Assembly: GCF_041886205.1 (NCBI RefSeq)
Contig: NZ_CP169031.1
Origin: Escherichia coli
GTDB taxonomy: Bacteria; Pseudomonadota; Gammaproteobacteria; Enterobacterales; Enterobacteriaceae
Direction: 5' to 3' (one strand)
DNA length: 64,000 bases
Shown: positions 12,515 through 63,287 of the stretch, piece after piece
Layout: each line of letters starts with the position of its first letter
Numbering within the stretch: position 1 is the stretch's first letter
Program-made: the position numbers and the translations under genes
The notes under the pieces: model-generated
Seen by the model: only the letters and a program-made list of their open reading frames with translations
Database searches by the model: none
What the model was told of the DNA's origin: nothing

Positions 12515-12531
12515 AAATTAATTAGAGCAAT
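12515..12531 (-). promoter_or_regulatory. C1 repressor operator-like site upstream of ssb
   Basis: AAATTAATTAGAGCAAT, 16/17 match to reverse complement of P1 operator consensus ATTGCTCTAATAAATTT. Confidence 0.6.
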
Positions 12532-12664
12532 AATGTATATCTTTGAAACGTGGCTAACAAGTGATTTGCATTATCCTGTGCCTTCTAAAGGGATCGAGTC
12601 AGTCGGTATTGGCTGTGAATGAGTGTTTGTCCTGGAGCGTAAAAAATTCGCTTATGAGGTCTTT

Positions 12665-13222
12665 ATGAAGGGAAAAACAGCCGCAGGAGGCGGTGCAATT
12701 TGCGCTATCGCGGTGATGATTACCATCGTGATGGGTAATGGCAATGTGCGAACCAACCAGGCGGGGCTTGAGCTGATTGGTAACGCTGAAGGTTGCCGAC
12801 GTGATCCATACATGTGCCCGGCGGGGGTATGGACTGACGGGATCGGTAATACACACGGGGTAACGCCGGGTGTGCGAAAAACCGACCAGCAAATCGCCGC
12901 TGATTGGGAAAAGAATATCCTGATCGCTGAACGCTGTATTAATCAGCACTTCCGGGGCAAAGACATGCCCGATAATGCCTTCAGTGCAATGACAAGCGCG
13001 GCATTCAATATGGGATGCAATAGCTTACGGACCTACTACAGCAAAGCGCGAGGCATGCGAGTAGAAACGTCCATCCACAAGTGGGCGCAGAAAGGGGAAT
13101 GGGTGAATATGTGTAACCATCTCCCTGATTTCGTGAACAGTAACGGCGTGCCCCTGCGAGGTTTAAAGATTCGCCGTGAAAAAGAACGCCAGCTTTGCCT
13201 GACGGGGCTTGTCAATGAATAA
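12665..13222 (+). CDS. lyz: SAR endolysin (T4-lysozyme family, P1 Lyz-like)
   Basis: 185 aa from ATG 12665; N-terminal signal-anchor-release segment MKGKTAAGGGAICAIAVMITIVMG followed by lysozyme catalytic region (GLELIGNAEGCRRDPY...GIGNT). Confidence 0.9.
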   Translation: MKGKTAAGGGAICAIAVMITIVMGNGNVRTNQAGLELIGNAEGCRRDPYMCPAGVWTDGIGNTHGVTPGVRKTDQQIAADWEKNILIAERCINQHFRGKDMPDNAFSAMTSAAFNMGCNSLRTYYSKARGMRVETSIHKWAQKGEWVNMCNHLPDFVNSNGVPLRGLKIRREKERQLCLTGLVNE

Positions 13223-13469
13223 ACTCCGGCAGCTCCGCCGACTTTCGACAATGAAGTTATCGCTGGCGGCGATAGTTTTTGACTCGATTTTCATGGCGGT
13301 ATATGTGCTCAATGAGACGTGGCCACTGGAACCGCTATTGTATGCCGGGCTTCGGCTGTGCCTGACATTTTTGAGCATGGCTGCGAGATTGATGCAGCAG
13401 AAAGAAACCGCTTCAGATTGTCCACGCCGCGCGGTGCGCAAATATATGGCACGAAGGCGAAGGCGATAA
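13209..13469 (+). CDS. Putative lysis accessory protein (P1 LydD-like position)
   Basis: 86 aa, overlaps lyz stop, one hydrophobic segment, basic C-terminus; followed by terminator. Confidence 0.4.
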   Translation: MSMNKLRQLRRLSTMKLSLAAIVFDSIFMAVYVLNETWPLEPLLYAGLRLCLTFLSMAARLMQQKETASDCPRRAVRKYMARRRRR

Positions 13470-13483
13470 TAGTTAACGAGAAC

Positions 13484-13508
13484 CCCGGCAGCTGCCGGGG
13501 TTATTTTT
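13484..13508 (+). terminator. Rho-independent terminator
   Basis: CCCCGGCAGCTGCCGGGG palindrome followed by TTATTTTT. Confidence 0.65.
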
Positions 13509-13513
13509 GGTGG

Positions 13514-16310: not shown

Positions 16311-19300
16311 ATGAACAAGCTATCTATGGGGGTGTTTCGCTGTTCAAGTGTCAGCGAAATATTAAAATACATTAGGGCAATAACATCTCACCGAGCGCCG
16401 ATTAAATACGGCGTGGAAAAGGTGGAAGGCAAAAGCTATGACCGACTGCGCCGGGAGGCGAATCAGAAGGCGATAGATTTGCTTAATTCGCTGGTGGACG
16501 GCGCGACACTGACAGATGAACAGCGCCAGATCCTGGCTGGGTACACCGGTGAAGGCGGCATTGGCGGGTCCGTCTCCGAATATTACACACCAAAGCCGAT
16601 CGCTGAAGGTGTCTGGGAGATCATGAAGCTCTACGGCGCGGACGTAGGTAACACTCTGGAACCATCGGCGGGAACCGGCGTTTTTAATGAGACAAAGCCG
16701 GTTGGTACGGTGATGACCGCGACTGAGATCAGCAGTGTTTCCGGTCGTATAAACCAGTTGTTACACCCGGAAGACAGCGTACAGATTTCCCCGTTCGAAC
16801 AGCTGGCTGTAAGCACGCCTAACGATTCATTCGACCATGTTGTGGGTAACGTTCCGTTCGGCGGTCGTGATAACACACGCAACATCGATAAGCCTTACGC
16901 AGAAGAAACGGACATGGGTTCTTACTTCATGCTCCGCATGCTGGACAAGATAAAGCCTGGCGGATTCATGTGTGTGATTGTGCCGCCGTCCATTGTTTCA
17001 GGTTCAAACATGAAGCGGTTACGCCTGCGCCTATCACGGAAAGCTGAATTTCTTGGCGCTCACCGCTTGCCTACCGGTACTTTTGACGCAAACGGGACCA
17101 GTACAGTCGTTGATGTGGTGCTGATGCGCAAACATCCGGCAGAGATGGCTGAGAAAATCCCCCTGGTGGATGAAGGCACTCTTGAATCGGCAAATGTGCT
17201 TTGGCCAACGTTTATTTCTGGCAAGTGGTTTGAAAAGGATGGCCGCCGGTTTGTTCATGGCACCCAGGAAAAGGGCTTCCAGGGGCGTATTGAGGTTCGT
17301 GCCGACGGTCAGATTGATAACCAGGCTCTTAAAGCGAAGCTGATTCATCGTTTCGAAAGCCGTATCGACTGGTCTTTGCTCGATATGGCTGAACCGTCAC
17401 CGACCGCAGACGTTGTTGGTGAAGGGGAAATGCGCCTGATTAATGGTGTATGGCAAAAATATGCTGGTGGTCGCTGGATTGAAGCTGATGCCGGGAAGGA
17501 ACTTAAGATCGATGCTGCCAGTTATGGCGCGGATAGCTGGGAGGCTCTTCAGCGTAACCTGACTACAACAGAAGGCCGTCTCGGCATGACATTTACCCAG
17601 ATGGCAAATGTCCGCGATAAGTACACCACATCAATCAGCGACGATATGGTGCAGCTGGTGGACTGGATTAACAGCCAGCCTGAAAAATACCGTGAACGCT
17701 TGTATCGCGGGGCGATGATTGGCCGGATGTTAATTGAATATCAGGACATGAAGGCCGCCGGGCATAGTGCTGAACAAATCGAACAGCAGCGCCTTTCTCT
17801 GGTATCCCGTTTGCAGGCAGAGATTGACCGTTTTGGTAACCCCGGTCGCGGTCCGATAGCGAAATTGTCGGGGAGCGGTGCGCGCGCCTGGTTTGCTTTC
17901 CGTGGTGCGATTAAGCTGGATGGCACTATTTCTGACGAGCTGACAGGAAAGCTGGTTACGCATGATTCCAGCGCCAGTTATGACTACACCAGCTATCAGG
18001 ACACCCTGCGTTATCTCTATAGCGATCTCACCCGCGATCCAATCCAGCTCGATGATTTCCGCCTTGCGTTTACCGGCGAACTGCCAGCCAGTGATGAAGA
18101 GTTGCTTAATTTATTGGCCAGCACCCCTGGTATTGCGGTTTCACCGTATGGCGGGATTGTTCCGTTCGCCCGCGCCACCAGCGGCGACATTAACGAGATA
18201 GTGGCTCCAAAACAGGAATTCCTCGCCACACTCCCCGACGGTCCAGTAAAGAACAACGTCCTTAATCAGCTGGCAGCTATCGAAGAGAAGCGCATCAAGA
18301 CGCCAGCAGAGAATATCCGGTTTAAGCTCAATAGCCGTTGGTTCGACCGTTCCGTCATTCTGGAATTTTTGCAGGAAAACGGCTATCCGGATCTGCGCTA
18401 TGTGCAGTCAGTGCAGCTGGAAGGCGACGAAATGGTTTCTGACACCTATCACGGTGGTGATGGTCTGTTCGTCGGGCACCGATACGGTGTCGTCCAGCGC
18501 AAGGATAAAGAAACAGGTGAGATTCGCTACGAGTGGGACCGTAAATCAGGTGAAAACGCGACCGGGTTCCCGGCACAGCTGGAAAAGTATCTCAATGGTG
18601 CGCGTATCGGTGGCAAAGATAGCGCGACGGCGAACGGCTACCGCGAGCAGATGGCACTGCTTGAGGACCAGTTCAATAAGTGGATCAAGACGCACGATCG
18701 CTACGATGAGCTGGTTGCCAAATACAACGATGTGTTCAATAGCAATATCCCGTATGAACACTCTGGCGATCCGCTTGGGTTGAAGGGATTAAGCGGTAAG
18801 CGCCAGCCATTTGATTACCAGAATAGCGAGGTGCGCCGACTGTCCGAAGATGGGCGCGGCATCCTGGGCTTCGGCACCGGGCTGGGTAAAACCACGACCG
18901 CGCTGGCGCTTGAGGCGTTCAACTATGAGAACGGTCGCTCCACCCGTACTGCGTATGTAGTGCCTAAATCAGTGCTGGAAAACTGGTATTACGAAGCAAA
19001 AGAATTCCTGAGTGAAGAGGCATTCAGTAACTACCTGTTCGTCGGTCTTGATGTGCTGATGGATGGCGATCAGATTCGCCAGGTGCAGGTGCTCGATGAG
19101 AACGGTAAACCTGTTCTTGGTACTGATGGCACTCCAGTTATGCGCGATGCTCTTAAGCTGGCAGATGAAGCCACTATCACGGCGCGGATGAACGCGATCC
19201 CGCACTCAAATTACCGTGCAGTCGTGTTTACCAAAGAACAATACGCCCGCATTCCGCTACGTGATGACACCGTAGATGAGCATGCACAGGATATGCTTTA

Positions 19301-22300
19301 TGACTTCGTTGCCGCCGGACGCGTAGCCAGCGCAATGGACTCCGACTCCCACCGCAAAGAGGCCGCGCGTCGCCGGGTATTGTCGGAGTATTCAGATACC
19401 GGCACCGAAAAAGCAGAGAAGTATCCGTACTTTGAGGATATGGGCTTCGATAGTGTGATCGCTGACGAAGGTCACAACTACCGCAATAGCTATAAAAATG
19501 GTCGCGAAGCGTCACAACTGGCCTATCTGCCCACCAGCGCGGTGGCGCAATCGGCGCGAGATATGGCAATTAAAAACGCGTACCTGATGAAAAAGAATGG
19601 TGGGCGCGGGCCGGTTCTCCTGACTGCAACGCCAGTCGTTAACACCCCGATCGATGCATACAACATGCTTTCTCATGTTCTGCCGAAGGAATACTGGCAG
19701 AACATGGGGATCTACGGTCCTGATGACTTCGTTAAATTCTTCGGCAAGACCAGGCTGGAAACGGTACAGAAAATTAGCGGTGAAGTTGAAGAAAAAATGG
19801 CGCTGGTGGGCTTTGAAAACCTTGATGCGCTGCGCGGTATATTCCATCGCTGGGTAACGCTTAAAACGGCGGAAGACGTTAAGGATACCGTGGAGATCCC
19901 GGAGCTGGACGAACACCAGCAGGATGCACCACTTACTGAAGAACAACTGGCGGCGTATGAAGAATTGCGTCAGCAGGCGGAAGCGGCGGCCAAAGCCAAC
20001 AATGGCGTAACGACCTCGGTCAATGAAGACGGCGTGATTGAGCACGAGAAAGCCCGTCCGATCTTCTCAATAATCAGGGATATGGACCGCGTATGTACTG
20101 ACATGGACCTGTACTATCGCCGGATCACCTATCGTTTCCTGCCGGAGTACGCCGATGCGGTGCAGCAGCTGGCGGACAGTTTGCCTAAACAAGCCACCAG
20201 CGAAGACGACGACAGTGATGATTCAATCACGCAGCAATCGCAATACTCCCTGATAGATAAGGGCGAGTTTATTCAGTTGCAGGTTCCGGAAGCGTTCGAG
20301 CAGGAAGTGAATAAGCGCCTGGCCAGGTTTGGCATTGACGAACAGACCGTAACTCACCCCGTTACGCCCAAATACGCGAAGCTGATTGCCACGCTGAAGG
20401 AGTTTTTCCCGGAAGGTAAGCAAATCATCTTCACCGATGAAAAAACGCAGCACCAGAAGCTCAAGCGCATTATCTGCAATGCTCTTAACCTTGAACCTTC
20501 AAAGGTGGGGATACTGAATGCTCAGACGGTTGCCGAGGCAGGTAAAACCGGTAAGAAACTGAAAGCGGTTAAACCGCCGAAAGAGTTACCGGATGAACCA
20601 ACAGATGCACAGATAGCGAAATACAACGAGCAAATGGCTCTGTATGACGCCTATATCGCGCAGCAAAATGAAATGTCGTTGGGCGGTCTGGAAAAGATTG
20701 CAGCCGACTTCCAGGAGGGCCGGACTCCGATCATCATCTGCAACAAAAAGGCAGAGGTGGGTATCAACCTGCATCGAGGAACGACTGACATCCATCATCT
20801 GACGTTGCCATGGACTCCAGCCAGTATTGCGCAACGAAACGGTCGCGGTGCCCGAGTTGGCTCCAACCGTGCAAGCGTTCGCGTTCACTACTACTGCGGC
20901 AAGGGTTCTTTCGATGAATACCGACTGAAGACGCTGAAGCGTAAAGCAGGCTGGATCTCCGATATCCTCCGTTCAGATAAGTCAGAAATGGAGAACGCCG
21001 ACGCCAACGATATGATCGAAATGCAGATGTATGCCGCTAAGGATGATGGCGAACGTCTGGCAATGATGCAGGTTCAAATGGATAAGGCGAAAGCCGCGCA
21101 ACGCGCTCGCCAGAAAGAACAGGCTACTATCGACCTTCAGAACTACATCAAGGCGCAGCACGCAGCTGGTGAGGATGTGGAGGTGCTTACCGCTGAATTA
21201 GAGCGAAGCAAAGCGGAACTTGAAAAGACCACCGCCGAGGTAGCTAAATTCAAACAGGCGGCAATGGCCAAGGCAGCGGATAACGCAGACTGGAAGGCAC
21301 GCTGGGGGAGTGTCCATCACACAGACCGTATGTTGTTAGCACAGTATCGCGCGTCGTTGAAAAGCGCCATTCAGCGCAAGGCTAATATCTCTCAAGCCAT
21401 CTCCCGCTATGAGAAATTATTGAACCGTACTCAGAAGGCCGCGACGGATATCAAACGCCTGCGCCCGCTGGTGGAGGATGCATTAAATAAAGGCATTCTG
21501 GATGTTGATCCTGACCTGGTTAACCATGCGAGTGAGTTCCTTGTTATCGGCGATCGCTCATGGCGTGTAGGCCAATACTACGATTGTGCCGGTGATATCG
21601 TTCGCATTAAGTCGCTGGACTTCGACAGCCAGCGCGCAGACGTGGAGATCATCTTCACCTTCAAAGGCACCAAATCTGGTAACTGGGATGTGAAGACGCT
21701 GGATAAACAGGTTGATGTAACTCCCGATGAAGATGCTGTTATGCAGAAAATCAGTGGTGGCGTCTCCATCGCCGGGATTAACGACATCGTTTCCTGTGAC
21801 GATTTCTACCGTTTCCAGCAGCGCGGCATGATCAAAATCACTGACTCATACGGCGTTCAGACTACAGAGTCAGGCTATAGCATTGATTTTGTTGGTACCT
21901 ATACGGACCCACTGAAGCATGCGGTTTACCCGGATCGCCGTGACGGCGCGCTGAAGTCGTCAATTGCAAAATGGGTGCTTGGTATGATGTCGGAAGGGAA
22001 TAACCGCCAGATCCGTTCGGCAGAAGCATTCCTGGTTGAACTGTTTGGCTCCAATTATGGCGATGTAATCGCGTCATACGGAGATACGCTATCCCCTGAA
22101 GCAATTCAGGAGAAAATAGCGGATGCGATCGCCAGAATGCCGGAGAAAACAAGCCAGGGGGCTACTCGTAACGGGGATTCTGAACTTGAAGTCACCAATG
22201 CCATTTTCGGTACCAATGAGTTCCGGGCGTCAGATTATGAGATCACCACAGCACAGTTTGGCACCATTGGCATTTACAGCAATAAAGACGAGATCAAGCA

Positions 22301-23111: not shown

Positions 23112-23552
23112 ATGGCCACACTATCTGATACAATAAAACCGAATAAAACATATCTTGAGGCGGTACTCCGTACAGCGTTGTTAGGAAAGACAGAAGACGA
23201 ATACGTTGATTTCTTCCTGTCAGGGCTACGCGGGCGATTACTGAAAAATCCCCGCCTGTACCGCAGCTATGGTCCATACTGGCCGGAAATTAAAAAATTA
23301 TTACTGGAGCGCGGTTATGGTAATTTCGGTCGTCTCGTTGACCGTGACGTTCGCAAAATTTACCGTTATGACCGCCCGGCGCTAACACTCATAGCCGCGA
23401 CGCTCTATAGCCAGGAGCGTTTTGATAATGGTCAGATATACTCAGCCTGGCATTTACTGCCAGTGCCTGAAGAAGTTGACGACCAGGACTATGAGTTTGA
23501 GTCTTACGATTTGGAAGTTGAAGCCTTGGCACAGGCTGGAGAGAAAACTTGA
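23112..23552 (+). CDS. ulx: Ulx-like protein
   Basis: 146-aa ORF between darB and lxc; named by synteny with P1 only. Confidence 0.45.
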   Translation: MATLSDTIKPNKTYLEAVLRTALLGKTEDEYVDFFLSGLRGRLLKNPRLYRSYGPYWPEIKKLLLERGYGNFGRLVDRDVRKIYRYDRPALTLIAATLYSQERFDNGQIYSAWHLLPVPEEVDDQDYEFESYDLEVEALAQAGEKT

Positions 23553-23797
23553 AAAAGCGATACTACACAGTAAAGCATGGGACGCTACGAGCATTACAAG
23601 AGTTTGCTGACAAGCATAACGTTGAGGTGCGCAGGGAAGGGGGAAGTAAAGCTCTGCGCATGTACCGTCCGGACGGGAAATGGCGTACAGTCGTCGATTT
23701 CAAAACAAACAGTGTTCCCCAGGGCGTCCGCGACCGGGCATTCGAAGAATGGGAGCAGATCATCATAGATAATGCATTGCTTCTCAATGCTGATTGA
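23549..23797 (+). CDS. lxc: Lxc-like small regulator
   Basis: 82-aa ORF overlapping ulx stop, followed by hairpin terminator; named by synteny with P1. Confidence 0.45.
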   Translation: MKKRYYTVKHGTLRALQEFADKHNVEVRREGGSKALRMYRPDGKWRTVVDFKTNSVPQGVRDRAFEEWEQIIIDNALLLNAD

Positions 23798-23806
23798 GTT
23801 TTGTTG

Positions 23807-23831
23807 GCCCGGTTTGCACCGGGCGTTTCAC
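23807..23831 (+). terminator. Hairpin terminator after lxc
   Basis: GCCCGGT-TTGC-ACCGGGC stem-loop followed by GTTTCAC. Confidence 0.5.
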
Positions 23832-23879
23832 AAACAATCAACTGGTTTGTAGTTCCTGCGGCGAGATGAATTATTAATA

Positions 23880-24488
23880 TTATCGTGGTGCCGATGATGC
23901 GATAGCCTGTATGATGTTATCAATATCGTTATCGTTCAGCATGAATATAGGTACACCATTAGAGTTTGCATTTTTTTCAGTGCTCATCAAACAAAGCCCC
24001 TCATACATGCCGCGAGTTTTTTTGAAATTGGCGACTGATGGAGTGGTGTAATTTCCTTTAAAGTGCATTCCGGCTGATTCATAAAAAGGAACCAAATCAG
24101 ACTGGCAAATCAAAGCGACCTCATTTGGAAATGCAAGTATTTCTGCCAGTATATTACTTCCAAGTCCATTACCACGATATTGCTCATATACATATATTTT
24201 ATGACAGTACAACGGAAAATTTCCCGATGGATGTCCGAAGATTAAGGCGTATCCGAACAAGTTTTCTTCATTAGTAAAGCCCATAATGCGCAAATGACCG
24301 GCTCGGTAACACTCTTCAAAAACGTTAATTATGTAGCTTCTCGCTGCTTTCAGCTCCTCTTCTGTCGGGAACATCATCAACCCCATAAGCGATGGAGTAT
24401 AGGCCAGATCCTGAAGAATCCCATTAGCTTCATTTTCGAAAATTAGCGGTAAGTGCGGTACAATTTCATTTGCCGAGGTATTAGACAT
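23880..24488 (-). CDS. GNAT-family N-acetyltransferase (accessory cargo)
   Basis: 202 aa; GNAT acetyl-CoA binding motif QYRGNGLGSNILAEIL and downstream PFYESAGMHF; AT-rich codon usage; 10-bp inverted repeat GAGTCCTTTG/CAAAGGACTC immediately upstream of start. Confidence 0.7.
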   Translation of the reverse strand: MSNTSANEIVPHLPLIFENEANGILQDLAYTPSLMGLMMFPTEEELKAARSYIINVFEECYRAGHLRIMGFTNEENLFGYALIFGHPSGNFPLYCHKIYVYEQYRGNGLGSNILAEILAFPNEVALICQSDLVPFYESAGMHFKGNYTTPSVANFKKTRGMYEGLCLMSTEKNANSNGVPIFMLNDNDIDNIIQAIASSAPR

Positions 24489-24686
24489 AGTATGGTGAGT
24501 CCTTTGTTTTCAAAGGACTCATGTTATCAGTGATAATCGTTTGTTGTAATAGTGTTGATAAAATAATTTTCTATTATGTAAGCAAGCTCATTTTTATGAC
24601 GGGTAATGCAAAAAAAATAGAATCAAAAAACTAAAAAATAATAATTCATGGGGTTTTACACCATCAAAAGTCCCCACTATAAATTA

Positions 24687-25328
24687 TTAGAAATAATTAT
24701 GCTTGCCTGTTAATACCCCTTTCGGCACTTTTTTTTGTTCCAGTGTCTGGGTACCCAGAATTATGTTAATAAGTGGACTTAGTAACGATGGTTCCTGGCG
24801 GGCTTCAACTTCTCCAGCCATTGCCCTGATGTAGTCGGCGCTGGCAACGTTGTTGTATTCCGTCGCAAAGCAACATAGTAATGTCAGAACATGCTCTGTC
24901 GTTATTTCGCTCCAGTTGATGTTGAAAAATTCATCGCCTTTTTTATCGTGTTCGGAATCGAAGATGCTTTGGTGGAGGATGTATTTGCCGGATTCCTTGC
25001 GCGGTAACTTGATCGCTTTCTGGCGTTCCAGCTCCTTGTAAATCTGCATTGCTTCAATCAGTACCGGCCTGCCGTTCATGAAGGGATCGCGCAACCTTAC
25101 ACGCTGGCCAACTCGACCAGTAATAAAGCTGTTTTCCTCTTCCACCAGCACGATAAAACCCTTTTCCTCTTTTTCTCGCAATTCGCGCAGCAGCTGGAGT
25201 TCCATGTCGCGGCGGCGTTCAGGGTAGCTGGTCCGCTCAGCCATTATCAGCTCGTTGTTGATCCATGCAGCAGTCATTGACGCCGGTTTGCCGACGCTCA
25301 TCGAAACAACGCATATTTTCTTATCCAT
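24687..25328 (-). CDS. Hypothetical protein (accessory cargo, partner of GNAT gene)
   Basis: 213 aa from ATG 25328 (track ORF starts at GTG 25355 inside the upstream terminator); AT-rich; no recognised motif. Confidence 0.5.
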   Translation of the reverse strand: MDKKICVVSMSVGKPASMTAAWINNELIMAERTSYPERRRDMELQLLRELREKEEKGFIVLVEEENSFITGRVGQRVRLRDPFMNGRPVLIEAMQIYKELERQKAIKLPRKESGKYILHQSIFDSEHDKKGDEFFNINWSEITTEHVLTLLCCFATEYNNVASADYIRAMAGEVEARQEPSLLSPLINIILGTQTLEQKKVPKGVLTGKHNYF

Positions 25329-25367: not shown

Positions 25368-25516
25368 AGCAATACAACTGAAGGTAGCGCCCGGTACTCA
25401 GACTGTGCCGTCCATGGAATATTTGAAAAGGGATCCATCCGTACCGGGCGTGTGATGATTCTGACTCAAGTCACTTGTCAGTTGTCAATCATTTAAGATT
25501 AAAAATAATATATTTA

Positions 25517-26077
25517 TTAGTGCATAATGTTTGCCATTTCATAGGCGTCAGCCAGCAACTCCATCTCTGACTTGTTCAACAAGGTGAATTCTTTCTTGCC
25601 TCCTACCACGCCATCGGCATGAACAGGGACCAGCCAGGGGTATTTTTCTCTTACTTCAGCCGGTGCTGCATGCTGGTGGTGCCATCTGCAAAGGGGCAAT
25701 TGCTTTTTGTGACAACCCGGCGCGGTACGACCGGAGATATGGTGCAGAGACACCTCTTCAGATATTACTCCATGCATGTAGCAGGCAATGCAGGGGAGAG
25801 TGCCAAGAGCATTGGCGATAGTCTGTTCCTCCTCCGTCGGTGTTCGCCCCTTCAAGCCACGAGATTTTATTTTTACCGCACTTTTCCGCGTTTTGCTGGC
25901 TGGTGGGCGCTCTTTCTGTTTAGCGATACGGCGGTCGATAGAATCCCGCATTTTCTGATATTGCGATTCTCGCCAGGCGGGGTCAGCCAACTTTTCCCGT
26001 TGCCGAGCGATCGCTCGTTCTCTGGCTGCCTTCTGCCACTCGCGGCGCTGTTCAAGTTTTTGTTCGATTGTTTTCAT
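25517..26077 (-). CDS. ref: Ref, HNH-family recombination enhancement endonuclease
   Basis: 186 aa from ATG 26077 (track ORF extends upstream); basic N-terminus (MKTIEQKLEQRREWQKAARERAIARQREK) and HNH/zinc motif CIACYMHG...HHISGRTAPGCHKKQLPLCRWHH, as I recall for P1 Ref. Confidence 0.85.
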   Translation of the reverse strand: MKTIEQKLEQRREWQKAARERAIARQREKLADPAWRESQYQKMRDSIDRRIAKQKERPPASKTRKSAVKIKSRGLKGRTPTEEEQTIANALGTLPCIACYMHGVISEEVSLHHISGRTAPGCHKKQLPLCRWHHQHAAPAEVREKYPWLVPVHADGVVGGKKEFTLLNKSEMELLADAYEMANIMH

Positions 26078-26082
26078 ATGGC

Positions 26083-26108
26083 AAAAAAAAGGCGGCCTAA
26101 TGGCCGCC
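26083..26108 (-). terminator. Hairpin + U-tract immediately upstream of ref start
   Basis: Minus strand GGCGGCC-ATTA-GGCCGCC followed by TTTTTTTT, 5 nt before ref ATG. Confidence 0.55.
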
Positions 26109-26175
26109 AATGATGTCAAGGAGTGAAGTAATGGCAACGTCTTCGTAGTTGACAAAAACTGCGGCCAAATTATAA

Positions 26176-26192
26176 CAATCAATTAGAGCAAT
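26176..26192 (-). promoter_or_regulatory. C1 operator-like site upstream of ref
   Basis: CAATCAATTAGAGCAAT, 14/17 match to operator consensus (reverse orientation). Confidence 0.5.
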
Positions 26193-26324
26193 GGTAGATA
26201 TTTTGTTTCTCGCGAATCACATTTTTTCACTTCAGTACCTGTGTGCTATACTCCTTCTTGATTGATTGGATGCGGAATACAAACCCGCTCTTTTGTGCAG
26301 CCTGGCTCCTTGCCAGGCTTTTTT

Positions 26325-26639
26325 TTATTTCATCATGGAAGCTGTTAACGCTTTGGACCTTGCTGAACTGATTGAAAGGGCATTGTTTACCTTACCCAGG
26401 AGTTTGCCAAATTCCCCCATCACTCTAGTAAGCCCGCGCCGCGCTTCCTCCTCCGTTGCATTCATCACAAAATGTTCAGCACTCCGCATGCTTTTAACGG
26501 GGAACGCAACAGATATCGAGTCGATATCAGGCATCCTATCGCTCAACTTTACGGTGACAATGACAGATGGCGACAGAATATTAGTGCTTACAGACAGCAC
26601 TACATATTTTCCGTCGATGTTGAAATCCTTTCTCATATG
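26325..26639 (-). CDS. Hypothetical small protein between cre and ref
   Basis: 104 aa from internal ATG; operator-like site just upstream; coding status uncertain. Confidence 0.3.
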   Translation of the reverse strand, partial: HMRKDFNIDGKYVVLSVSTNILSPSVIVTVKLSDRMPDIDSISVAFPVKSMRSAEHFVMNATEEEARRGLTRVMGEFGKLLGKVNNALSISSARSKALTASMMK

Positions 26640-26652
26640 CCACCATAAATAC

Positions 26653-26669
26653 CAAAGAATTAGAGCAAT
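26653..26669 (-). promoter_or_regulatory. C1 operator-like site (weak)
   Basis: CAAAGAATTAGAGCAAT, 13/17 match; core ATTAGAGCAAT intact. Confidence 0.4.
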
Positions 26670-26686
26670 CATTTACGCGTTAATGG

Positions 26687-27718
26687 CTAATTGCCATCTT
26701 CCAGCAGGCGCACCATTGCCCCTGTTTCACTATCCAGGTTACGGATATAGTTCATGACAATATTTACATTGGTCCAGCCACCAGCTTGCATGATCTCCGG
26801 TATTGAAACTCCAGCGCGGGCCATATCTCGCGCTGCTCCGACACGGGCACTGTGTCCAGACCAGGCCAGGTATCTCTGACCAGAGTCATCCTTAGCGCCG
26901 TAAATCAATCGATGAGTTGCTTCAAAAATCCCTTCCAGGGCGCGAGTTGATAGCTGGCTGGTGGCAGATGGCGCGGCAACACCATTTTTTCTGACCCGGC
27001 AAAACAGGTAGTTATTCGGATCATCAGCTACACCAGAGACAGAAATCCATCGCTCGACCAGTTTAGTTACCCCCAGGCTAAGTGCCTTCTCTACACCTGC
27101 GGTGCTAACCAGCGTTTTCGTTCTGCCAATATGGATTAACATTCTCCCACCGTCAGTACGTGAGATATCTTTAACCCTGATCCTGGCAATTTCTGCTATA
27201 CGTAGCAGGGTATTATAAGCAATCCCAAGAAATGCCAGATTACGTATATCCTGGCAGCGATCGCTATTTTCCATGAGTGAACGAACCTGGTCGAAATCAG
27301 TGCGTTCGAACGCCAATGCCTGTTTTGCACGTTCACCGGCATCAACGTTTTCTTTTCGAATCCGCCGCATGACCAGTGAAACAGCATTGCTGTCACTTGG
27401 TCGTGGCAGCCCGGACCGACGATGAAGCATGTTTAGCTGGCCCAAATGTTGCTGGATAGTTTTTACTGCCAGACCGCGCGCCTGAAGATATAGAAGATAA
27501 TCGCGAACATCTTCAGGTTCTGCGGGAAACCATTTCCGGTTATTCAACTTGCACCATGCCGCCCACGACCGGCAAACGGACAGAAGCATTTTCCAGGTAT
27601 GCTCAGAAAACGCCTGGCGATCCCTGAACATGTCCATCAGGTTCTTGCGAACCTCATCACTCGTTGCATCGACCGGTAATGCAGGCAAATTTTGGTGTAC
27701 GGTCAGTAAATTGGACAT
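26687..27718 (-). CDS. cre: Cre tyrosine recombinase
   Basis: 343 aa MSNLLTVHQNLPALPVDATSDEVRKNLMDMFRDRQAFSEHTWKMLLSVCRSWAAWCKLNNRKWFPAEPEDVRDYLLYLQARGLAVKTIQQHLGQLNMLHRRSGLPRPSDSNAVSLVMRRIRKENVDAGERAKQALAFERTDFDQVRSLMENSDRCQDIRNLAFLGIAYNTLLRIAEIARIRVKDISRTDGGRMLIHIGRTKTLVSTAGVEKALSLGVTKLVERWISVSGVADDPNNYLFCRVRKNGVAAPSATSQLSTRALEGIFEATHRLIYGAKDDSGQRYLAWSGHSARVGAARDMARAGVSIPEIMQAGGWTNVNIVMNYIRNLDSETGAMVRLLEDGN: essentially the Cre sequence as I know it (last residue N here vs D in my recollection). Confidence 0.97.
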   Translation of the reverse strand: MSNLLTVHQNLPALPVDATSDEVRKNLMDMFRDRQAFSEHTWKMLLSVCRSWAAWCKLNNRKWFPAEPEDVRDYLLYLQARGLAVKTIQQHLGQLNMLHRRSGLPRPSDSNAVSLVMRRIRKENVDAGERAKQALAFERTDFDQVRSLMENSDRCQDIRNLAFLGIAYNTLLRIAEIARIRVKDISRTDGGRMLIHIGRTKTLVSTAGVEKALSLGVTKLVERWISVSGVADDPNNYLFCRVRKNGVAAPSATSQLSTRALEGIFEATHRLIYGAKDDSGQRYLAWSGHSARVGAARDMARAGVSIPEIMQAGGWTNVNIVMNYIRNLDSETGAMVRLLEDGN

Positions 27719-27725
27719 TTAACAC

Positions 27726-27947
27726 TCAGATAATGGTTTTAAGTAAAGTGTACAGGATCGGCTCTGCCTTTACCTGTTTATGGTTCTCGTCATAGAAACG
27801 CCAGCGACCGCGCGTGCGTTCTATTTTCTCTTCACCGCGCGATAATGACAGTTGGCAACTATCACGATCAAACCCTTTTGCCCGCCAGTAACCACGGTTT
27901 TTCTCAAGCTCAAGATGAGTGGACACTTTAGCAGCTGAATATCCCAT
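27726..27947 (-). CDS. cra: Cra-like small protein (cre-associated)
   Basis: 73-aa ORF between loxP and cre on the cre strand. Confidence 0.55.
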   Translation of the reverse strand: MGYSAAKVSTHLELEKNRGYWRAKGFDRDSCQLSLSRGEEKIERTRGRWRFYDENHKQVKAEPILYTLLKTII

Positions 27948-28170: not shown

Positions 28171-28213
28171 TAGGTCTGAAGAGGAGTTTACGTCCAGCTG
28201 CGCATAAAAATCA

Positions 28214-28230
28214 ATAATTATTAGAGCAAT
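28214..28230 (-). promoter_or_regulatory. C1 operator-like site
   Basis: ATAATTATTAGAGCAAT, 15/17 match (reverse orientation). Confidence 0.6.
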
Positions 28231-28296: not shown

Positions 28297-28313
28297 ATTG
28301 CTCTAATAAATTA
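28297..28313 (+). promoter_or_regulatory. C1 operator overlapping putative -35 of coi/c1 promoter
   Basis: ATTGCTCTAATAAATTA, 16/17 match; TTGACA hexamer directly upstream (28291-28296). Confidence 0.7.
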
Positions 28314-28551: not shown

Positions 28552-28761
28552 ATGGCTTTCATTCCACCAACCATCGACGACGTTAGACATTGCTCTAACG
28601 CTTTATCTGTAGACCCCGCCGAAACCGACGCTGCCCGCGCCATTGCTGAACACTACTCAAAGATATCCAATCAGGAGTACCGCATCACCCAAGACGACCT
28701 GGATGATCTCACTGACACAATCGAATATCTCATGGCCACTAACCAGCCAGACTCACAATAA
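28552..28761 (+). CDS. coi: Coi-like C1 inactivator
   Basis: 69-aa acidic ORF immediately upstream of c1 on the same strand, preceded by operators. Confidence 0.55.
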   Translation: MAFIPPTIDDVRHCSNALSVDPAETDAARAIAEHYSKISNQEYRITQDDLDDLTDTIEYLMATNQPDSQ

Positions 28762-28777
28762 ATGCACTAATAAATCT
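28761..28777 (+). promoter_or_regulatory. C1 operator-like site between coi and c1 (weak)
   Basis: AATGCACTAATAAATCT, 14/17 match. Confidence 0.4.
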
Positions 28778-28871
28778 ATTATTTTCGTTGGATCCTTCTA
28801 TAATGGTGGCCAACAACTCCCAGTGTAATCCGCTGTGAGTTGTTGGCCATGTCAATTCTGGAGGAGGATCA

Positions 28872-29723
28872 ATGATAAATTATGTCTACGGCGAACAACT
28901 GTACCAGGAGTTCGTCAGTTTCAGGGATCTCTTTCTAAAAAAAGCTGTTGCACGCGCCCAACACGTTGATGCCGCCAGCGACGGTCGTCCTGTTCGCCCG
29001 GTTGTCGTTCTGCCGTTCAAAGAAACGGACAGCATTCAGGCTGAAATTGATAAATGGACTTTAATGGCGCGGGAACTGGAACAGTACCCAGACCTCAATA
29101 TCCCAAAGACTATTTTATATCCAGTGCCTAACATCCTTCGCGGTGTGCGTAAGGTTACAACTTATCAGACAGAAGCTGTGAACAGCGTCAACATGACTGC
29201 TGGCCGCATTATTCATCTGATTGATAAGGACATTCGCATCCAGAAAAGCGCGGGGATCAATGAGCACAGTGCGAAATACATAGAGAACCTGGAAGCAACA
29301 AAAGAGCTAATGAAGCAGTACCCGGAGGATGAAAAATTCCGTATGCGCGTACACGGCTTTAGCGAAACAATGCTGCGCGTCCATTACATTTCCAGTAGCC
29401 CTAACTACAATGATGGTAAATCAGTTAGTTACCATGTGCCGCTATGTGGTGTGTTTATCTGCGATGAAACTCTCCGTGATGGAATCATCATCAACGGTGA
29501 ATTCGAGAAAGCAAAATTTAGCCTTTATGACTCTATAGAACCGATCATCTGCGACCGCTGGCCGCAGGCAAAAATATATCGCCTGGCAGATATTGAAAAT
29601 GTAAAAAAACAAATTGCCATCACTCGCGAAGAGAAAAAGGTCAAATCAGCCGCATCAGTTACGCGCAGCCGTAAAACTAAGAAGGGGCAGCCAGTAAACG
29701 ACAACCCCGAAAGCGCGCAATAG
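28872..29723 (+). CDS. c1: C1 repressor of lysogeny
   Basis: 283 aa MINYVYGEQLYQEFVSFRDLFLKKAVARAQ..., matching P1 C1 length and N-terminus as recalled; operators of the matching 17-bp type are scattered through the window. Confidence 0.9.
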   Translation: MINYVYGEQLYQEFVSFRDLFLKKAVARAQHVDAASDGRPVRPVVVLPFKETDSIQAEIDKWTLMARELEQYPDLNIPKTILYPVPNILRGVRKVTTYQTEAVNSVNMTAGRIIHLIDKDIRIQKSAGINEHSAKYIENLEATKELMKQYPEDEKFRMRVHGFSETMLRVHYISSSPNYNDGKSVSYHVPLCGVFICDETLRDGIIINGEFEKAKFSLYDSIEPIICDRWPQAKIYRLADIENVKKQIAITREEKKVKSAASVTRSRKTKKGQPVNDNPESAQ

Positions 29724-33033: not shown

Positions 33034-33050
33034 CAATACATTAGAGCAAT
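33034..33050 (-). promoter_or_regulatory. C1 operator-like site upstream of lpa
   Basis: CAATACATTAGAGCAAT, 14/17 match. Confidence 0.5.
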
Positions 33051-33051
33051 T

Positions 33052-43639: not shown

Positions 43640-43656
43640 AGATTTATTAGAGTAAT
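43640..43656 (-). promoter_or_regulatory. C1 operator-like site
   Basis: AGATTTATTAGAGTAAT, 15/17 match. Confidence 0.55.
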
Positions 43657-57567: not shown

Positions 57568-58001
57568 TACAGATAATCTTCCACACGAAGACCTAAACGA
57601 CGGCCTACTTCTTCCAGTACTTTGTGTTCTGCTGGCTCGATTTCACCGTCCGCTTCTGCAATTGTCAGCATGTTAACGAATACTTCTTCCGCTTCTTTTG
57701 GATCGTTTTTGATATCTTCAATTTCGCGAAGGATATTCATGCGACCAACACGGAAGCCAGCTTCCAGTTGCTCGGTAAAGCGGGTAATTGTTGCAGTAAT
57801 TTCGTTACCAAAATGACTAAGACGCGGATTAGAGCGGACAAGCTGATCAAGTTTCGCTGTTTCTTCTTTTTCGATTTCACCATCAGCGGCAGACACCAAC
57901 AAACAGCCACCGATGATGGCCTCCATCAGATCGCGATTCTCAACTTTTTTCAGCTCTACTTTTGCAGAAGCGACTTTCTTGCCGAACAATTTACCGAACA
58001 T
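57567..58001 (-). CDS. tciA: TerB-like tellurite-resistance-domain protein (TciA-like)
   Basis: 144 aa; two Asp/Glu metal-binding repeats (AADGEIEKEE ... EADGEIEPAE) typical of TerB domain. Confidence 0.7.
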   Translation of the reverse strand: MFGKLFGKKVASAKVELKKVENRDLMEAIIGGCLLVSAADGEIEKEETAKLDQLVRSNPRLSHFGNEITATITRFTEQLEAGFRVGRMNILREIEDIKNDPKEAEEVFVNMLTIAEADGEIEPAEHKVLEEVGRRLGLRVEDYL

Positions 58002-58928
58002 TGGTTATCCCTCAATAAAAGTGACATATTTATTAGATTGCGGTGCCGAGTGCCTCCCGGTGACGTTAACCAGTTAACAATTAACGTCGGAATGTTTAAC
58101 CATTAAGGAGGATTGTTTTAACTGTTCCGCGTGCGCTTAGCCGCATTCACCGCAACGGAAAGAGCATTCCTGGTGGACCTGTAGATTGGGATATGAACCC
58201 GTTACAGGAGAATGCTCTTACCTGTTACGTGCTCCGTTTCGTGGAGCTAACGGCGGGTGATCGGGCCGCACCAGACTGGACTTATTTCAGCGTTATGCTC
58301 ATGCCAGAGAATCAAACTGTGATGGTCGGTGCTGAACTCCGACACAGGGTTGTAGCAAGCCCCGCAAAGCGCGCACTACTGTAGTTGCGGCACATCAGCC
58401 TGTGCATTCACCACAATGTTGAGAACACTGGTTGTCACGCTGCAACGCAACATTTATTCGTAGATTGGGATATGACCCCGTTACGCCAGTGTTCTCAACG
58501 TTGTAGTGCCGGTTACGGTTCCGGCCAGGCCTCTTCCTCAACGGGGTGTTCTCCATACGGACTACCGTTTATTGGTCGTTCCTGCGGTTTATGTTGTGAA
58601 GCCAGATGCTTATCTTCTGGTTGCTTCAAAGAGCTGCACTTCATCACAACGGTAAGAGCACTCGATGCATTTAAGCCAAGCCCCATAAGGGAGAATGCCC
58701 TTACCTGTTGTGTTGTGATGACCGGTGCTGATCTCCGGCTTGCGGTTATTTCAGACTCTCACGGGCGTTTAATTGCCCCGCCGAACAGCTCTTTTCCGCA
58801 ATAGCTGCAATGTCTTTCGCGCATCAGCCTGCGCATTCATCACAACGGTAAGGGTACTTCGTAGGGATTCGAACCCTCTGCCAAGCTCGGCGATCTCCGA
58901 CGTCGCAAAATACCCTTACCTGTTGTGC

Positions 58929-59082: not shown

Positions 59083-59748
59083 ACTTGCCGGGTACGTCTC
59101 CGGCGAGGGCTTCCACCTCCGTATGCTTTTCGGCGCACCGCGCCCTGGCTGCAATTCGGTAACAGGGGATGCATAACCCTGGCTTCCAGCGTGATTAGCG
59201 CTTTCAGCATGACGGGATATACCCGTAAATTCGTGGAACTGTACCCAAAGTGCTGTTAAGCACCGCTGTTACGCTGAAAAGAAAACGCAACAGGAAAGGA
59301 CGCTGACCAACAGATGGCCCCTTCTCGTTCATCTGGTTAATCACACCAGCGCCCTTACCTGTTGTGTCTCCCCGTTCCCTAATACACAGACGGGGACACT
59401 CTGCGGTCGATTTTTTGACGGGGGACGACTCATACCCCGTGGCGTCTGGCTTCTTAGGCCGCTACCATCATCAGATCATCGTTTGCATTTACTTTAATGG
59501 TCAGTTTCTAAACCGCCGCAAAGTCGCTAACCATGACGAAAACCCTGAAAAAAAACGCCCACCCGAAGATGGGCAAACTGGAAGCTCGTAACGCACTTCG
59601 GAGTTGCCACTTAGGCGCATGGTCAACCTGGCAACTCGGTGGTTTGTCTGGGAGGACTAGGCCCAGCCATGCTTACCGCCGCGCCTGTCGCGGCTAACAG
59701 CTAAATCGCTCTATAAATCACGATTCATTGAGGCGATATTACACTAAT

Positions 59749-59765
59749 AAATTTATTAGAGCAAT
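59749..59765 (-). promoter_or_regulatory. C1 operator (perfect consensus) at dmt 3' end, upstream of tRNA/tci/ban operon
   Basis: AAATTTATTAGAGCAAT, 17/17 to reverse complement of consensus; overlaps a partial forward copy (ACACTAATAAATTT). Confidence 0.75.
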
Positions 59766-62020
59766 ATACCTAAAACGTCATGAGCTACACCTCGAGTGTC
59801 CCCCTTACAAGACACAGAACGTCTGGCAAAAAGAGGTTCCACTCTGAAGCCACTGTCATGATAAAGCTCTCTGATATTTGGCGCGCCACTGTTAGTAATG
59901 AGAACCTTTGCACCTCGACGATGAGCATCCGTCAACAGAGACACCAGGCGTTTTTGCTCTTCAAACTTAAAGTCATGACCGGAATAGTTCGTGAATCCCT
60001 CTGTATTTGGAAGCGGTTCATACGGCGGATCGCAAAAGATGACATCTCCTTCTCCGGCAGCTTCAATCACCGCTGCAAAATCACCGCATACAAACTCAGA
60101 CCGCCCTTCCGCACCGAGGAAGGCTTCCATCTCCTGTAATGGGAAATACGGAGTTTTATACTTCCCATAACCGACATTGAACTCACCGGCCTGGTTGTAA
60201 CGCGTCAATCCGTTAAAACAATGTCGGTTCAGGAACAAAAACGCCGCTGCGCGATGTAAATCATCATAGACTTGTTTGTTAAACGCATTCCGTACTGCCA
60301 GGTATCCTTCCTGTGTGTTGTAGTCCTGGAAGAAACGATGTGCCAGAGTGATAAGTGAATGCGCCTCGCGTTGCAGAGTCTTGTAAAAGTTAATCAGGTC
60401 AGCATTCACATCATTTAGCAGATTTTCCTGGTATCCGGCATTCATGAAGACAGCTCCGCCACCAACGAAAGGTTCAATCAGGCGCTTCCCTTCTGGCAAA
60501 TAGCGAAAGATTTGTTCCAGAACACCAAATTTTCCACCAGCCCATTTGAATATGGACCGTTCGAATTCTGCCGCTGGTTTAACTTTTCGCTCTTTTGTTT
60601 TACTTCCTTCTTTCTGCCGACATACGGCCTTAGTAATCCGATCGCCAATCCAGCGCATTACTGGTATTGCCATACTATTGCCGATCGCTTTGTAACGCGG
60701 TCCGTCAGCTGCAAGCATCGCGGCCTCTTCTTCGCTTAAATCTGGATAGTGATTGCGAAGATATGCCAGTTCATCTGAATTAACTTTTTTACGCTTTTCC
60801 GTCGGGATCAACGTATGCCCATCAGGAAAACCTTGCAGCCTTTCACATTCGACAGGGGTAAGACGGCGGACAGCTACTTCTGCGTTTCTTACTTCATAGC
60901 AAACAGCTGTTGGATTTTTAGCCATTAGAGATGGTGAAGTATTCTTAGTTGCAGCATGTTGTGTACCGCTCATACGCTCAGGAAAAGCCAATGTAACAAG
61001 ATGCTCATGGCTTTCTTGCTCACGTGCCCGCAATGTACCATGCCCTTCTGACCAAAAACCTGCTCCTGTGCTGCTAAAAACGGCAAGGTCAGTGGCATCT
61101 TTAAAATCTCTTGCCTTTACTGTCGATGCGGTTTCATCGTCAATATATTCCCCAAATGCTGCCATCCTGAAAGCGTTTACGGCTTTCGTCGATTTCATAC
61201 CGGGTGGAATGTCAGCGTGTAGGCATGGATTTAGGCTTTCGCCACTGATTGCAGCGCCATTTGCAATAATGGCGGAAGCGATTTCCTTCTTTTTTCGGCT
61301 CGGCGCAATATCCCGGCGCACGCCTTCGAACTCAAAAAGTACCGTTGCGGGATCGAGGTCTGTTCGAGCACTTGCGACAACAAACACGCGTCGGCGTCGT
61401 TGTGCCACTCCGAAGTATTGGGCATCAAGGATTCTCCAGGCCACCTTTCGCTGCGGTCCATAAATACAACCACACTGCGGCCACTTTGGAGCATGGCAAC
61501 CGGTTTTGCCATCCCACCGCCAGAACGCGTTACTTTTTCCTGATTCAGGTCGATCACCTGGTTCAAATGGCGCATCTTCTCCAGCCAATCCGGCAAGGAA
61601 ACATCCGAAGGCGTTATCTGCCGATGACAGGACTCCTGGGACATTTTCCCAGACGATAACTGTCGGTTTGAGGAAGGACTCAGACCGTTTGTCGTCAATT
61701 GCATTTGCAAGCTCCACATACTTCAAAGTTAGCGCGCCGCGTTCATCATCAAGCCCACCACGTAAGCCCGCGATACTGAATGCCTGACAAGGTGTTCCCC
61801 CGACGAGCACATCAGGGGATTCGATTTCCCCAGCCAGGACTTTTTTGGCAAGTTTTGTCATGTCGCCAAGGTTGGCGACATGGGGCCAGCGGTGCGCAAG
61901 AACGGCAGATGGAAAAGGCTCGATTTCAGCAAACCACGCCGGACGCATACCCAACGGTTCCCAGGCAATACTCGCGGCTTCAATTCCACTGCAAACAGAT
62001 CCATAGCACAGCTCTTTCAC
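59756..62020 (-). CDS. dmt: Bifunctional DNA methyltransferase (C5-cytosine + N6-adenine; P1 Dmt-like)
   Basis: 754 aa; N-terminal C5-MTase motifs (SVCSGIEA; [12 protein letters not shown]; ENV), C-terminal Dam-like DPPY motif ([10 protein letters not shown]). Confidence 0.85.
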
Positions 62021-62922
62021 TGCTTAGCCTCTCCACCAAGGGCATTTACCAGAGCATCAACCAGGCACGAAATTTCACTGGTTAACAGGAAGAAATCTGC
62101 GTCCAGTCGCTGCGCAACATCTTCACTATCAATATCAGAGTTCTGCTCAAGCAATTCATCCGCAAATTTGACGCTGGTAAGGCTGAAGTTATGGTCCAGT
62201 GTAAATTTAATGCGGTTCTGCCAGTCGAGTGCCAACTTAGTGACGAGCTTGCCAGCTTCCAGGTGTGTGGAAATTTCATCGCTTCCCAAATCCTGCTTTT
62301 TCACTCGGGCAATACCGCCATCCTCAAGCACTGCCTTAAGTTCTGCCGCATCCCCCATTTGAAATCCCTGTGGAGCACTACCATCACGTACCCAGTCGGT
62401 CAGCGTTAATTCAATGGGATTTTCAACACTCAGGGGAACAACAGGAAGAGAACCAAGAGACTTACGCATAAGCGCGAGCATATCCTCTGCCTGCCGCGCG
62501 CTGGCATTGATATAGATACGTTTAGTTGAACCGTCGTAGATCGCCTGGATAACAGAAAACTTTGAAAAAGCCCGTGGCAGAAGAGAATGCAGAACTTCGT
62601 CTTTCAGGGAGTCCTTCTCTGTTTTCTTCAGTTTACGCGCTTGTTCTTGCTCAAGTTTTTCAATTTTTTCTTGAATAGCTCGCTGGATAACCGGCGGGGG
62701 AAGAATTTTTGTTTCGCGCTTTGCTTCAACAAGGATAAAACCATTTCCATGCATAGCGATAACTTCGGAATTATCACCAAATGGCGATACAAAACCGAAC
62801 TTAGCCATATCCTGACTACCGCATGGCGTGAAAAGGATCATTTTCTTTTTATCTTCTAAGTCGGTCAGATCCGCCTCACGAGAAAGTTTATAAATAGTAA
62901 TGTTTTTCCAGTGCTTAAACAT
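62017..62922 (-). CDS. hrdC: RdgC-family recombination-associated protein (P1 HrdC-like)
   Basis: 301 aa from ATG 62922 (track ORF to 63036); strong similarity to E. coli RdgC as recalled ([15 protein letters not shown]...[13 protein letters not shown]...ALDWQNRI...LGGEAKQ). Confidence 0.8.
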
Positions 62923-63199
62923 GTTGTAACCCTTGAATATCAACCACAGAAAGCTCGTCTTTGTAGAAAAAGGCCAGGTTGTGGCACCCCCTCGTTTGAG
63001 CGTATGAGCTGGGACCAATTTCGTTCTTCCAGACAAATGGCTTCAAATCCGTACGGCGAAGCATAAAAACGCGATTTGTTCCGCTCTGATTCCCAATGAG
63101 GCAAAAGCCTTCTTTCACCTTGATAGCCTGCAAGTTGTCGAGTTCACCGCTGGTTACACGGCTATCGAACTCTTTGCGGCTTATTAGCTCCATCTGCAT
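62915..63199 (-). CDS. Hypothetical protein upstream of hrdC
   Basis: 94 aa from internal ATG 63199 (GGAG RBS); operator at 63271-63287 upstream; overlaps hrdC start by 8 nt. Confidence 0.35.
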
Positions 63200-63270
63200 C
63201 TGACGACTCCAAACAAATGCCCATTGAAGGGCGATGGCTGAATGGTACCGAAAATACGACATAAAAAACA

Positions 63271-63287
63271 ATATTTATTAGAGCAAT
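63271..63287 (-). promoter_or_regulatory. C1 operator-like site
   Basis: ATATTTATTAGAGCAAT, 16/17. Confidence 0.65.

Follow-up and report, generated by a model that had tools for sequence, protein, structure and literature searches.

Which factor reads a 17-bp word that recurs across 64,000 nucleotides of Escherichia coli DNA, and which genes does it thereby control? The stretch in question, referred to here at its full length as the window (contig NZ_CP169031.1 of NCBI RefSeq assembly GCF_041886205.1), was described in an earlier note as holding at least 13 such words, which were taken to be a network of operators for the phage immunity repressor C1. All 13 are present where that note had placed them, 12 of them being recovered by a scan for the consensus ATTGCTCTAATAAATTT with up to three mismatches and the remaining one (at 26653) by a matrix scan. 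The 17-mers are very probably operators of the P1-type master repressor C1 in a P1-like phage-plasmid. This reading of the sequence is carried by positional orthology to P1, enrichment over chance, the sharp boundary of the motif, the presence of the cognate C1, Coi and Lxc proteins, conservation among relatives and the published literature. The network as such is already known, having been annotated site by site in the reference genome, and is carried nearly unchanged here; the only modestly new item is a candidate operator upstream of c8.

A P1-like phage-plasmid with the C1 operators in place

The window is a P1-like punavirus or phage-plasmid, which in a local blastn of its whole length is collinear with P1 (AF234172) in reverse orientation at 93-99% identity (segments in Table 1). 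A megablast of positions 26000-34000 returns phages of the P1 type, among which Salmonella phage SJ46, aligned along the full query at 98.5%, is the closest record for the immunity region immC, while P1 and P7 match at 93-94%. From the extent of these alignments, the window therefore covers immC, lxc (bof, alias immT) and most early operons, and the immI region and lytic replicon fall outside it along with the P1 operators Op51, Op53 and Op55.

P1 features were carried onto the window through pairwise alignment with AF234172. All 17 annotated monovalent C1 operators of the covered P1 regions are present at the orthologous bases, 14 being identical in sequence and three (Op2b, Op99e and Op88) differing by a single substitution. 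Twelve of the 13 words listed before coincide base for base with AF234172 protein_bind features labelled ‘phage repressor C1’, which bears out the network reading. The count of at least 13 holds as a lower bound and is an undercount, with Op2b (25510), Op99c (28589), Op99b (28772), Op83 (48499) and Op72b (59738) having been missed; all of these but Op99b are picked up by the matrix scan. The operators assigned earlier to ssb, ref, coi/c1, lpa, the tRNA-tci-ban unit and hrdC are confirmed by coordinate mapping, and only the site given for ppp has to be moved, as the operator proximal to that operon is Op83 at 48499 and not the word at 49406.

In P7, in a Salmonella plasmid and in two plasmids of E. 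albertii, neither sequence nor offset changes at the immC, ref, mat and lpa sites, and even the weak Oc1c keeps its offset in 6/6 relatives scanned. The repressor itself is encoded in the window together with its inactivator Coi and its corepressor Lxc (Table 1). Compared with C1.100 of P1, the C1 protein is identical at 282 of 283 positions; the sole difference is G193 in the window for C193 in P1, the latter plausibly being the thermosensitive mutation of the reference strain. A structure search found no solved structures related to C1.

Published work describes C1 as binding 22 operators dispersed over P1, with the asymmetric consensus given above, and describes Lxc as forming a ternary complex that strengthens C1 binding and Coi as inactivating C1 (PMC8546580); two further papers agree on the C1 operators (PMC8198154; PMC4713147). 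The P1 record AF234172 holds 20 monovalent and two composite C1 protein_bind features, which, we infer, make up the published count of 22. The targets of C1 include repL and lpa, the activator of late promoters (PMC8546580; PMC8198154), and a C1 site occludes a ref promoter (PMC4713147). C1 binding and repression at the sites of the window would follow from this P1 work, which was done on sites of identical sequence.

Enrichment and boundaries of the motif

The matrix used for scanning was built from the 20 monovalent C1 operators annotated in P1, with a hit threshold of 14 bits. A matrix scan against a shuffled background, named earlier as a check, yields 18 hits of at least 14 bits in the window, as against 0.64 when dinucleotides are shuffled (300 rounds) and 0.54 when shuffling stays inside 100-bp blocks (500 rounds), by which the local AT content is kept. 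AT content thus does not explain the frequency of the motif. Simple matching to the consensus with up to three mismatches gives a similar picture, the window holding 14 matches (the 12 sites mentioned above plus 16365 and 59738) where 100 dinucleotide-preserving shuffles average 0.34 and never exceed 2. Further, the exact 11-mer core ATTGCTCTAAT is found in 10 copies against 0.04 expected. Sixteen of the operators score 14.7-28.3 bits with 0-5 mismatches, the known weak exception being Oc1b at 5.8 bits, which is recognisable through homology and not through the motif.

The simplest alternative is that an AT-rich word matches by chance in AT-rich intergenic DNA. The sites do lie in locally AT-rich DNA (GC 0.34-0.50 within +/-100 nt, as compared to 0.48 for the window), and the additional hit inside darB at 16365 falls within the range of chance, 0.16-0.19 hits of at least 16 bits being expected per window. 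For the set as a whole, however, this explanation is refuted by the shuffles and by the coincidence of the sites with operators annotated in P1, and its probability is vanishingly small; it is possible only for the darB-internal site, which may be such a chance match. That 17-mer lies ~100 nt downstream of the predicted PdarB start and is carried unchanged but without annotation in P1, and the region is almost invariant across 55 relatives, which makes it too uniform to reveal selective constraint. Window segments without a P1 counterpart (204-3314, 23795-24687, 35556-43467 and 57536-58127) hold no match above 11 bits in the matrix scan, so the type I restriction (hsd) cassette located there adds no new C1 sites.

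When the sites are aligned with their flanks, information content jumps at the first position of the 17-mer, and the sequences upstream of it show no relationship to one another. What recurs is therefore a binding motif, and dispersed copies of a longer repeat are ruled out by these unrelated flanks. On the 3' side, a T-rich tract is observed at +20 to +25 after most operators (T fraction 0.67 vs 0.29 locally), for example within the 8-nt stretches 43632-43639, 45774-45781 and 63263-63270 that each follow an operator, and the three P1 operators outside the window have the same tract. In about seven operators, the tract is followed by a TAnnnn hexamer placed 17 bp from the TTGCTC of the operator. 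The tract and hexamer suggest that the sites share a longer promoter-operator module, about 30 bp in size; the C1 motif may also extend into the 3' T-tract, a weaker extension than the c8 reading discussed below.

Operators, promoters and the mechanism of repression

The -35 and -10 hexamers annotated in P1 map beside or inside each operator, and nearly all of them are identical in the window; these annotations are partly predictions by the P1 annotators, few of which are recovered by a simple consensus scan. The operators occupy the spacer (Oref, Oc1d), lie on the -35 (Olpa, OpmgRa, OpmgT, Obana, Oc1a/b), abut it (Odmt, Oc1e), cover the -10 (O26), lie just 3' of the -10 or in the leader (Ossb, Oppp, OpmgRb), precede the promoter (Omat) or fall inside the coi gene (Oc1c). 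Oc1e, at the -35 of P4cre, overlaps it by 1 nt and is classed among those that abut. Oc1d fills the spacer of P1coi between the -35 TTGACA (28291-28296) and the -10; the overlap with this hexamer claimed earlier does not exist, the hexamer ending where the operator begins.

C1 would occupy each asymmetric 17-bp site on, between or just 3' of the sigma-70 -35/-10 hexamers, and the bound repressor would exclude or block RNA polymerase. Given the positions of the operators relative to the promoters, steric exclusion or a roadblock is thus the supported mechanism. In the plasmid prophage, such binding is predicted to silence ssb, ref, mat, coi, lpa, pmgR-pmgS, the Op88 unit, pmgN-ppp-pmgQ, pmgL-pmgM, the tRNA-tci-ban unit and uhr-hrdC-dmt, and c1 itself would be autoregulated through the Op99 cluster. 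Lxc would tighten C1 binding, titration of C1 by Coi would allow lytic growth, and repression of lpa would indirectly hold off all late promoters.

Such proximity to promoters can also be explained the other way round, with the repeated word being a shared promoter module read by RNA polymerase, either as a TTGCTC -35 or as a TGnTCTAAT extended -10. The TTGCTC within the motif is indeed the annotated -35 of P1ban, PpmgR and P2pmgT, and TCTAAT is the annotated -10 of PkilA in P1; in several sites, the T-tract is present and a TAnnnn hexamer stands 17 bp away from TTGCTC, and the c8-proximal copy in P1 (TGCTATAAT) is a perfect extended -10. A pure promoter element, however, would not be found at every promoter-relative position and in both orientations as these sites are, conservation spans 17 bp including positions that sigma-70 does not read, and published work ascribes the sites to C1. 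The two roles are moreover compatible, as an operator embedded in a promoter is how repression works. The promoter module as a full explanation is therefore highly improbable, and operators of C1 are the preferred reading.

Nothing contradicts the C1-operator reading, and some caveats attach to individual sites. The G4-to-A change in Op88 affects a highly conserved position, and this operator may be weaker than its P1 counterpart. Oc1b and Oc1c (5.8 and 14.7 bits) are not callable from the motif alone, and the words at 26653 and 16365 are without an annotated P1 counterpart, such that for both of them we infer any operator status.

A candidate operator upstream of c8

The word at 26653 was listed earlier without naming the gene that it precedes. 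It is present and is not an annotated P1 operator. Flanked by the stop codon of cre on one side and by c8 on the other, it ends 17 nt before the c8 start codon (ATG at 26636). At 18.9 bits, this candidate (‘Oc8’) scores above the annotated Orlf (18.0) and Oc1c (14.7). Its P1 orthologue reads ATTGCTATAATTATTTG and carries no operator feature, and none is annotated at c8 in AF234172 or in the immC records of P7 and phiW39 (AY751747, AY751748). A literature search, in which Lobocka et al. 2004 was not covered, returned no mention or experimental record of an operator at c8.

Conservation sets the element apart from its surroundings. Its 11-bp core is intact in 74 of 80 IMG/VR relatives (37 haplotypes), with an entropy of 0.049 as against 0.827 in the adjoining upstream 17-bp spacer, which occurs in at least three unrelated versions; the candidate is thus discretely conserved beyond its neighbourhood. 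Within the candidate, the variable columns are positions 12-14, where true operators likewise carry little information, and it stands constantly at -33 from the c8 ATG in P7 and in the Salmonella and E. albertii plasmids. The core reads ATTGCTCTAAT in the window vs ATTGCTATAAT in P1. In P1 and P7, an A at the otherwise invariant position 7 creates the perfect extended -10 mentioned above; the C found there in 74/80 relatives is the C1 consensus and removes the critical A of the -10 hexamer, which argues against a purely promoter role. In a consensus promoter scan, no sigma-70 promoter using the c8-proximal motif was found.

On this evidence, positions 26653-26669 are somewhat more likely than not to bind C1 and would then constitute a genuine additional operator, absent from the annotation of P1, P7 and phiW39. 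It is somewhat favoured, on the same comparisons, that c8, a putative lysogeny-establishment gene, comes under direct C1 control. In that case, the site could form a roadblock for transcription that starts at the cre and Pc8 promoters, or C1 bound there could cover a -10 embedded in the operator. The weakened P1 variant with A at position 7 may explain why the site is missing from the annotation.

For this site alone, the block might instead be conserved as the 5' leader of c8, as a ribosome-binding region or as a -10. The 16 nt that follow the motif, up to the ATG of c8, are conserved as well (entropy 0.22), so a general constraint on the leader does exist; the TGnTATAAT of the P1/P7 variant, the lack of operator annotation in three phages and the silence of the searched literature are on the same side. 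On the other side are the onset of conservation at precisely the first base of the 17-mer, next to a hypervariable spacer of 17 bp (0.83 vs 0.05), variable columns that match the low-information positions of operators, a C at position 7 in most relatives that matches C1 and breaks the -10, scores of 18.9-22.6 bits that exceed several annotated operators, and a promoter scan without a sigma-70 promoter on the element. The leader explanation is possible but less likely, and binding of C1 is the preferred reading of the site.

Operators and neighbouring features in detail

Table 1. Operators, related genes and P1-collinear segments of the window, with their counterparts in P1 (AF234172).
Feature	Window position	Strand	P1 counterpart	Sequence and remarks
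Ossb/Op21	12515..12531	-	21015-21031	ATTGCTCTAATTAATTT; identical to P1; 26.6 bits
Omat/Op2b	25510..25526	-	2628-2644	TATGCACTAATAAATAT; C to T at position 1; 20.0 bits
Oref/Op2a	26176..26192	-	1962-1978	Identical to P1; in P2ref spacer
Oc1e/Op99e	28214..28230	-	94724-94740	One change, at position 16
Oc1d/Op99d	28297..28313	+	94641-94657	Identical to P1
Oc1c/Op99c	28589..28605	+	94349-94365	Identical to P1; inside coi; weak, 14.7 bits
Oc1a/Op99a	28761..28777	+	94177-94193	Identical to P1; strong half of bivalent Oc1ab
Oc1b/Op99b	28772..28788	-	94166-94182	ACGAAAATAATAGATTT; identical to P1; weak half of Oc1ab; 5.8 bits
Olpa/Op94	33034..33050	-	89904-89920	Identical to P1
OpmgT/Op88	43640..43656	-	84293-84309	ATTACTCTAATAAATCT; G4 to A; overlaps pap stop codon
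OpmgRb/Op86b	45733..45749	+	82201-82217	Identical to P1; in leader, 15 nt upstream of pmgR ATG
OpmgRa/Op86a	45782..45798	-	82152-82168	Identical to P1; contains PpmgR -35 (TTGCTC)
Oppp/Op83	48499..48515	+	79435-79451	Identical to P1; 20.7 bits
O26/Op82	49406..49422	+	78528-78544	Identical to P1
Obanb/Op72b	59738..59754	+	68678-68694	Identical to P1; half of bivalent Obanab
Obana/Op72a	59749..59765	-	68667-68683	Identical to P1; perfect consensus match; contains P1ban -35
Odmt/Op68	63271..63287	-	65145-65161	Identical to P1; abuts Pdmt -35, upstream of uhr-hrdC-dmt
Candidate operator ‘Oc8’	26653..26669	-	1485-1501	ATTGCTCTAATTCTTTG; 4 mismatches; 18.9 bits
Operator-like 17-mer in darB	16365..16381	-	17166-17182	ATTGCCCTAATGTATTT; codons 19-24; identical to P1; 16.2 bits
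c1	28872..29723	+		NCBIfam NF041318 phage_rep_C1 equivalog, 610.9 bits vs cut-off 500
coi, C1 inactivator	28552..28761	+	94193-94402	phrog_2079, full length
lxc (bof), corepressor strengthening C1 binding	23549..23797	+	9750-9998	phrog_2160, full length
28-aa hydrophobic open reading frame	43557-43471	-	84392-84478	MNTAFKIIMAAIYFWLFSITFGGIVAHG; good Shine-Dalgarno; just downstream of Op88
Collinear segment	3314-23795		31240-9752	blastn; 98% identity
Collinear segment	24687-28153		3468-1	blastn
Collinear segment	28154-35556		94800-87389	blastn
Collinear segment	43467-55267		84482-72683	blastn
Collinear segment	58836-64000		69594-64432	blastn

Several operators can be placed more closely. Ossb lies directly 3' of the P2ssb -10 and upstream of ssb (12495-12007), and Omat, 22 bp ahead of the -35 of Pmat, reaches into the end of ref. 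The bivalent Oc1ab overlaps the Pc1 -35, and Olpa overlaps the Plpa -35, its target being the late-promoter activator lpa (32963-32511). O26, upstream of pmgL-pmgM in the region that separates gene 26 from the divergent pmgL, overlaps the -10 of P2pmgL as well as the -35 of P1pmgL. Downstream of Obana follow tRNA-Asn, tRNA-Thr, tciABC, a tRNA with anticodon CAT, and ban.

The operator proximal to the pmgN-pmgO-pmgP-ppp-pmgQ unit is Oppp, situated 13 nt downstream of the PpmgN -10. An inverted half-site that is weak (CGTGAAATAATAAATTA, 48510-48526 on the minus strand, 8.3 bits) overlaps Oppp by 6 bp, with the 11-bp offset and geometry of the bivalent Op72ab and Op99ab and with AAATAATA in common with Oc1b. 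The conditional chance of such a partner is 0.002-0.005 per site, or roughly 0.03-0.06 when ~13 monovalent sites are allowed for. Oppp may thus be bivalent with 48510-48526 as its partner half-site, which is again a weaker extension than the c8 reading.

The two Op86 operators form the inverted pair around a palindrome that had been described at 45733-45798. Its arms (45733-45745 and 45786-45798) are 100% complementary and enclose the inner palindrome, a perfect 11-bp inverted repeat at 45746-45756 and 45763-45773 (AAAACGTGATG / CATCACGTTTT, 6-nt loop) nested between Op86b and Op86a; together, arms and inner repeat make a near-perfect 66-bp palindrome. The inner part could be a hairpin in the pmgR leader or the terminator of pmgQ.

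Op88 stands at the edge of the P1 homology, which ends at 43467. Beyond this point, the pmgT-pmgU-pmgV genes that follow Op88 in P1 are replaced by a type I hsdM-hsdS-hsdR cassette (37386-43391 on the plus strand, with boundaries at ~36910 and 43467), which encodes proteins of 520, 402 and 1038 aa, respectively, and runs convergent to the Op88 promoter. The same arrangement in place of pmgTUV is found in phi456 and vB_EcoM-673R5 and not in SJ46. In the window, Op88 precedes only a 28-aa open reading frame and then terminator-like hairpins. This reading frame is identical in P1, where it is not annotated, and has no family match; its product could be a small membrane peptide. By tblastn, it is present in 867 plasmids, 198 of them conjugative, and in an IncF plasmid it adjoins the 3' end of hsdR. 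Between Op88 and the reading frame, a GC-rich hairpin is seen at 43585-43607 (ACATGCCGCG...CGCGGCATGT) with a T-run on the plus strand only; it would thus stop transcription that arrives from hsdR and let that from Op88 pass.

The earlier note had also placed accessory genes under C1 through the sites near 43640 and 45733-45798. The 28-aa reading frame downstream of Op88 is real. The gene named there as a HAD phosphatase, pap, has matches among polynucleotide-kinase/phosphatase PHROGs, in keeping with a phosphatase of the HAD type, and it lies upstream of Op88. A strong intrinsic terminator (44216-44187 on the minus strand; 11-bp stem with 6 GC pairs and a T-run) stands between pmgS and pap, so pap may lie outside the Op86-controlled transcript, and C1 control of this gene is not established.

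Comparison with known systems and significance

Mapping of the C1 operators in P1 dates back to the late 1980s. P1 C1 resembles lambda CI in that one master repressor silences the lytic promoters and regulates its own synthesis, with an antirepressor route to induction. Lambda CI acts as a dimer on symmetric sites clustered at two loci (OR/OL); P1 C1 acts on ~20 asymmetric sites over some 95 kb, each guarding its own operon, and is itself acted on by the corepressor Lxc and the protein antirepressors Coi and Ant1/2.

The operators of the window share consensus, positions, genes and promoters with those of P1 (AF234172, Lobocka et al. 2004). The architecture of immC and the operator offsets are likewise identical in P7, a Salmonella IncY plasmid and E. 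albertii plasmids. It is the accessory cargo that differs among P7, phiW39, SJ46 and several hundred P1-like phage-plasmids of Enterobacteriaceae. Apart from this, two E. albertii plasmids (CP043248, NZ_CP117602) carry extra icd/ant antirepressor modules beside c1 and in place of ref, each with its own strong C1 operator of 22-28 bits.

The operators identify the window as a P1-like phage-plasmid whose C1 immunity specificity is wild type, which is useful for annotation. The site upstream of c8, if a true operator, would add one gene more to the C1 regulon. Further, the exchange of pmgTUV for a type I restriction cassette is an instance of accessory cargo being swapped beside a conserved C1-controlled promoter.

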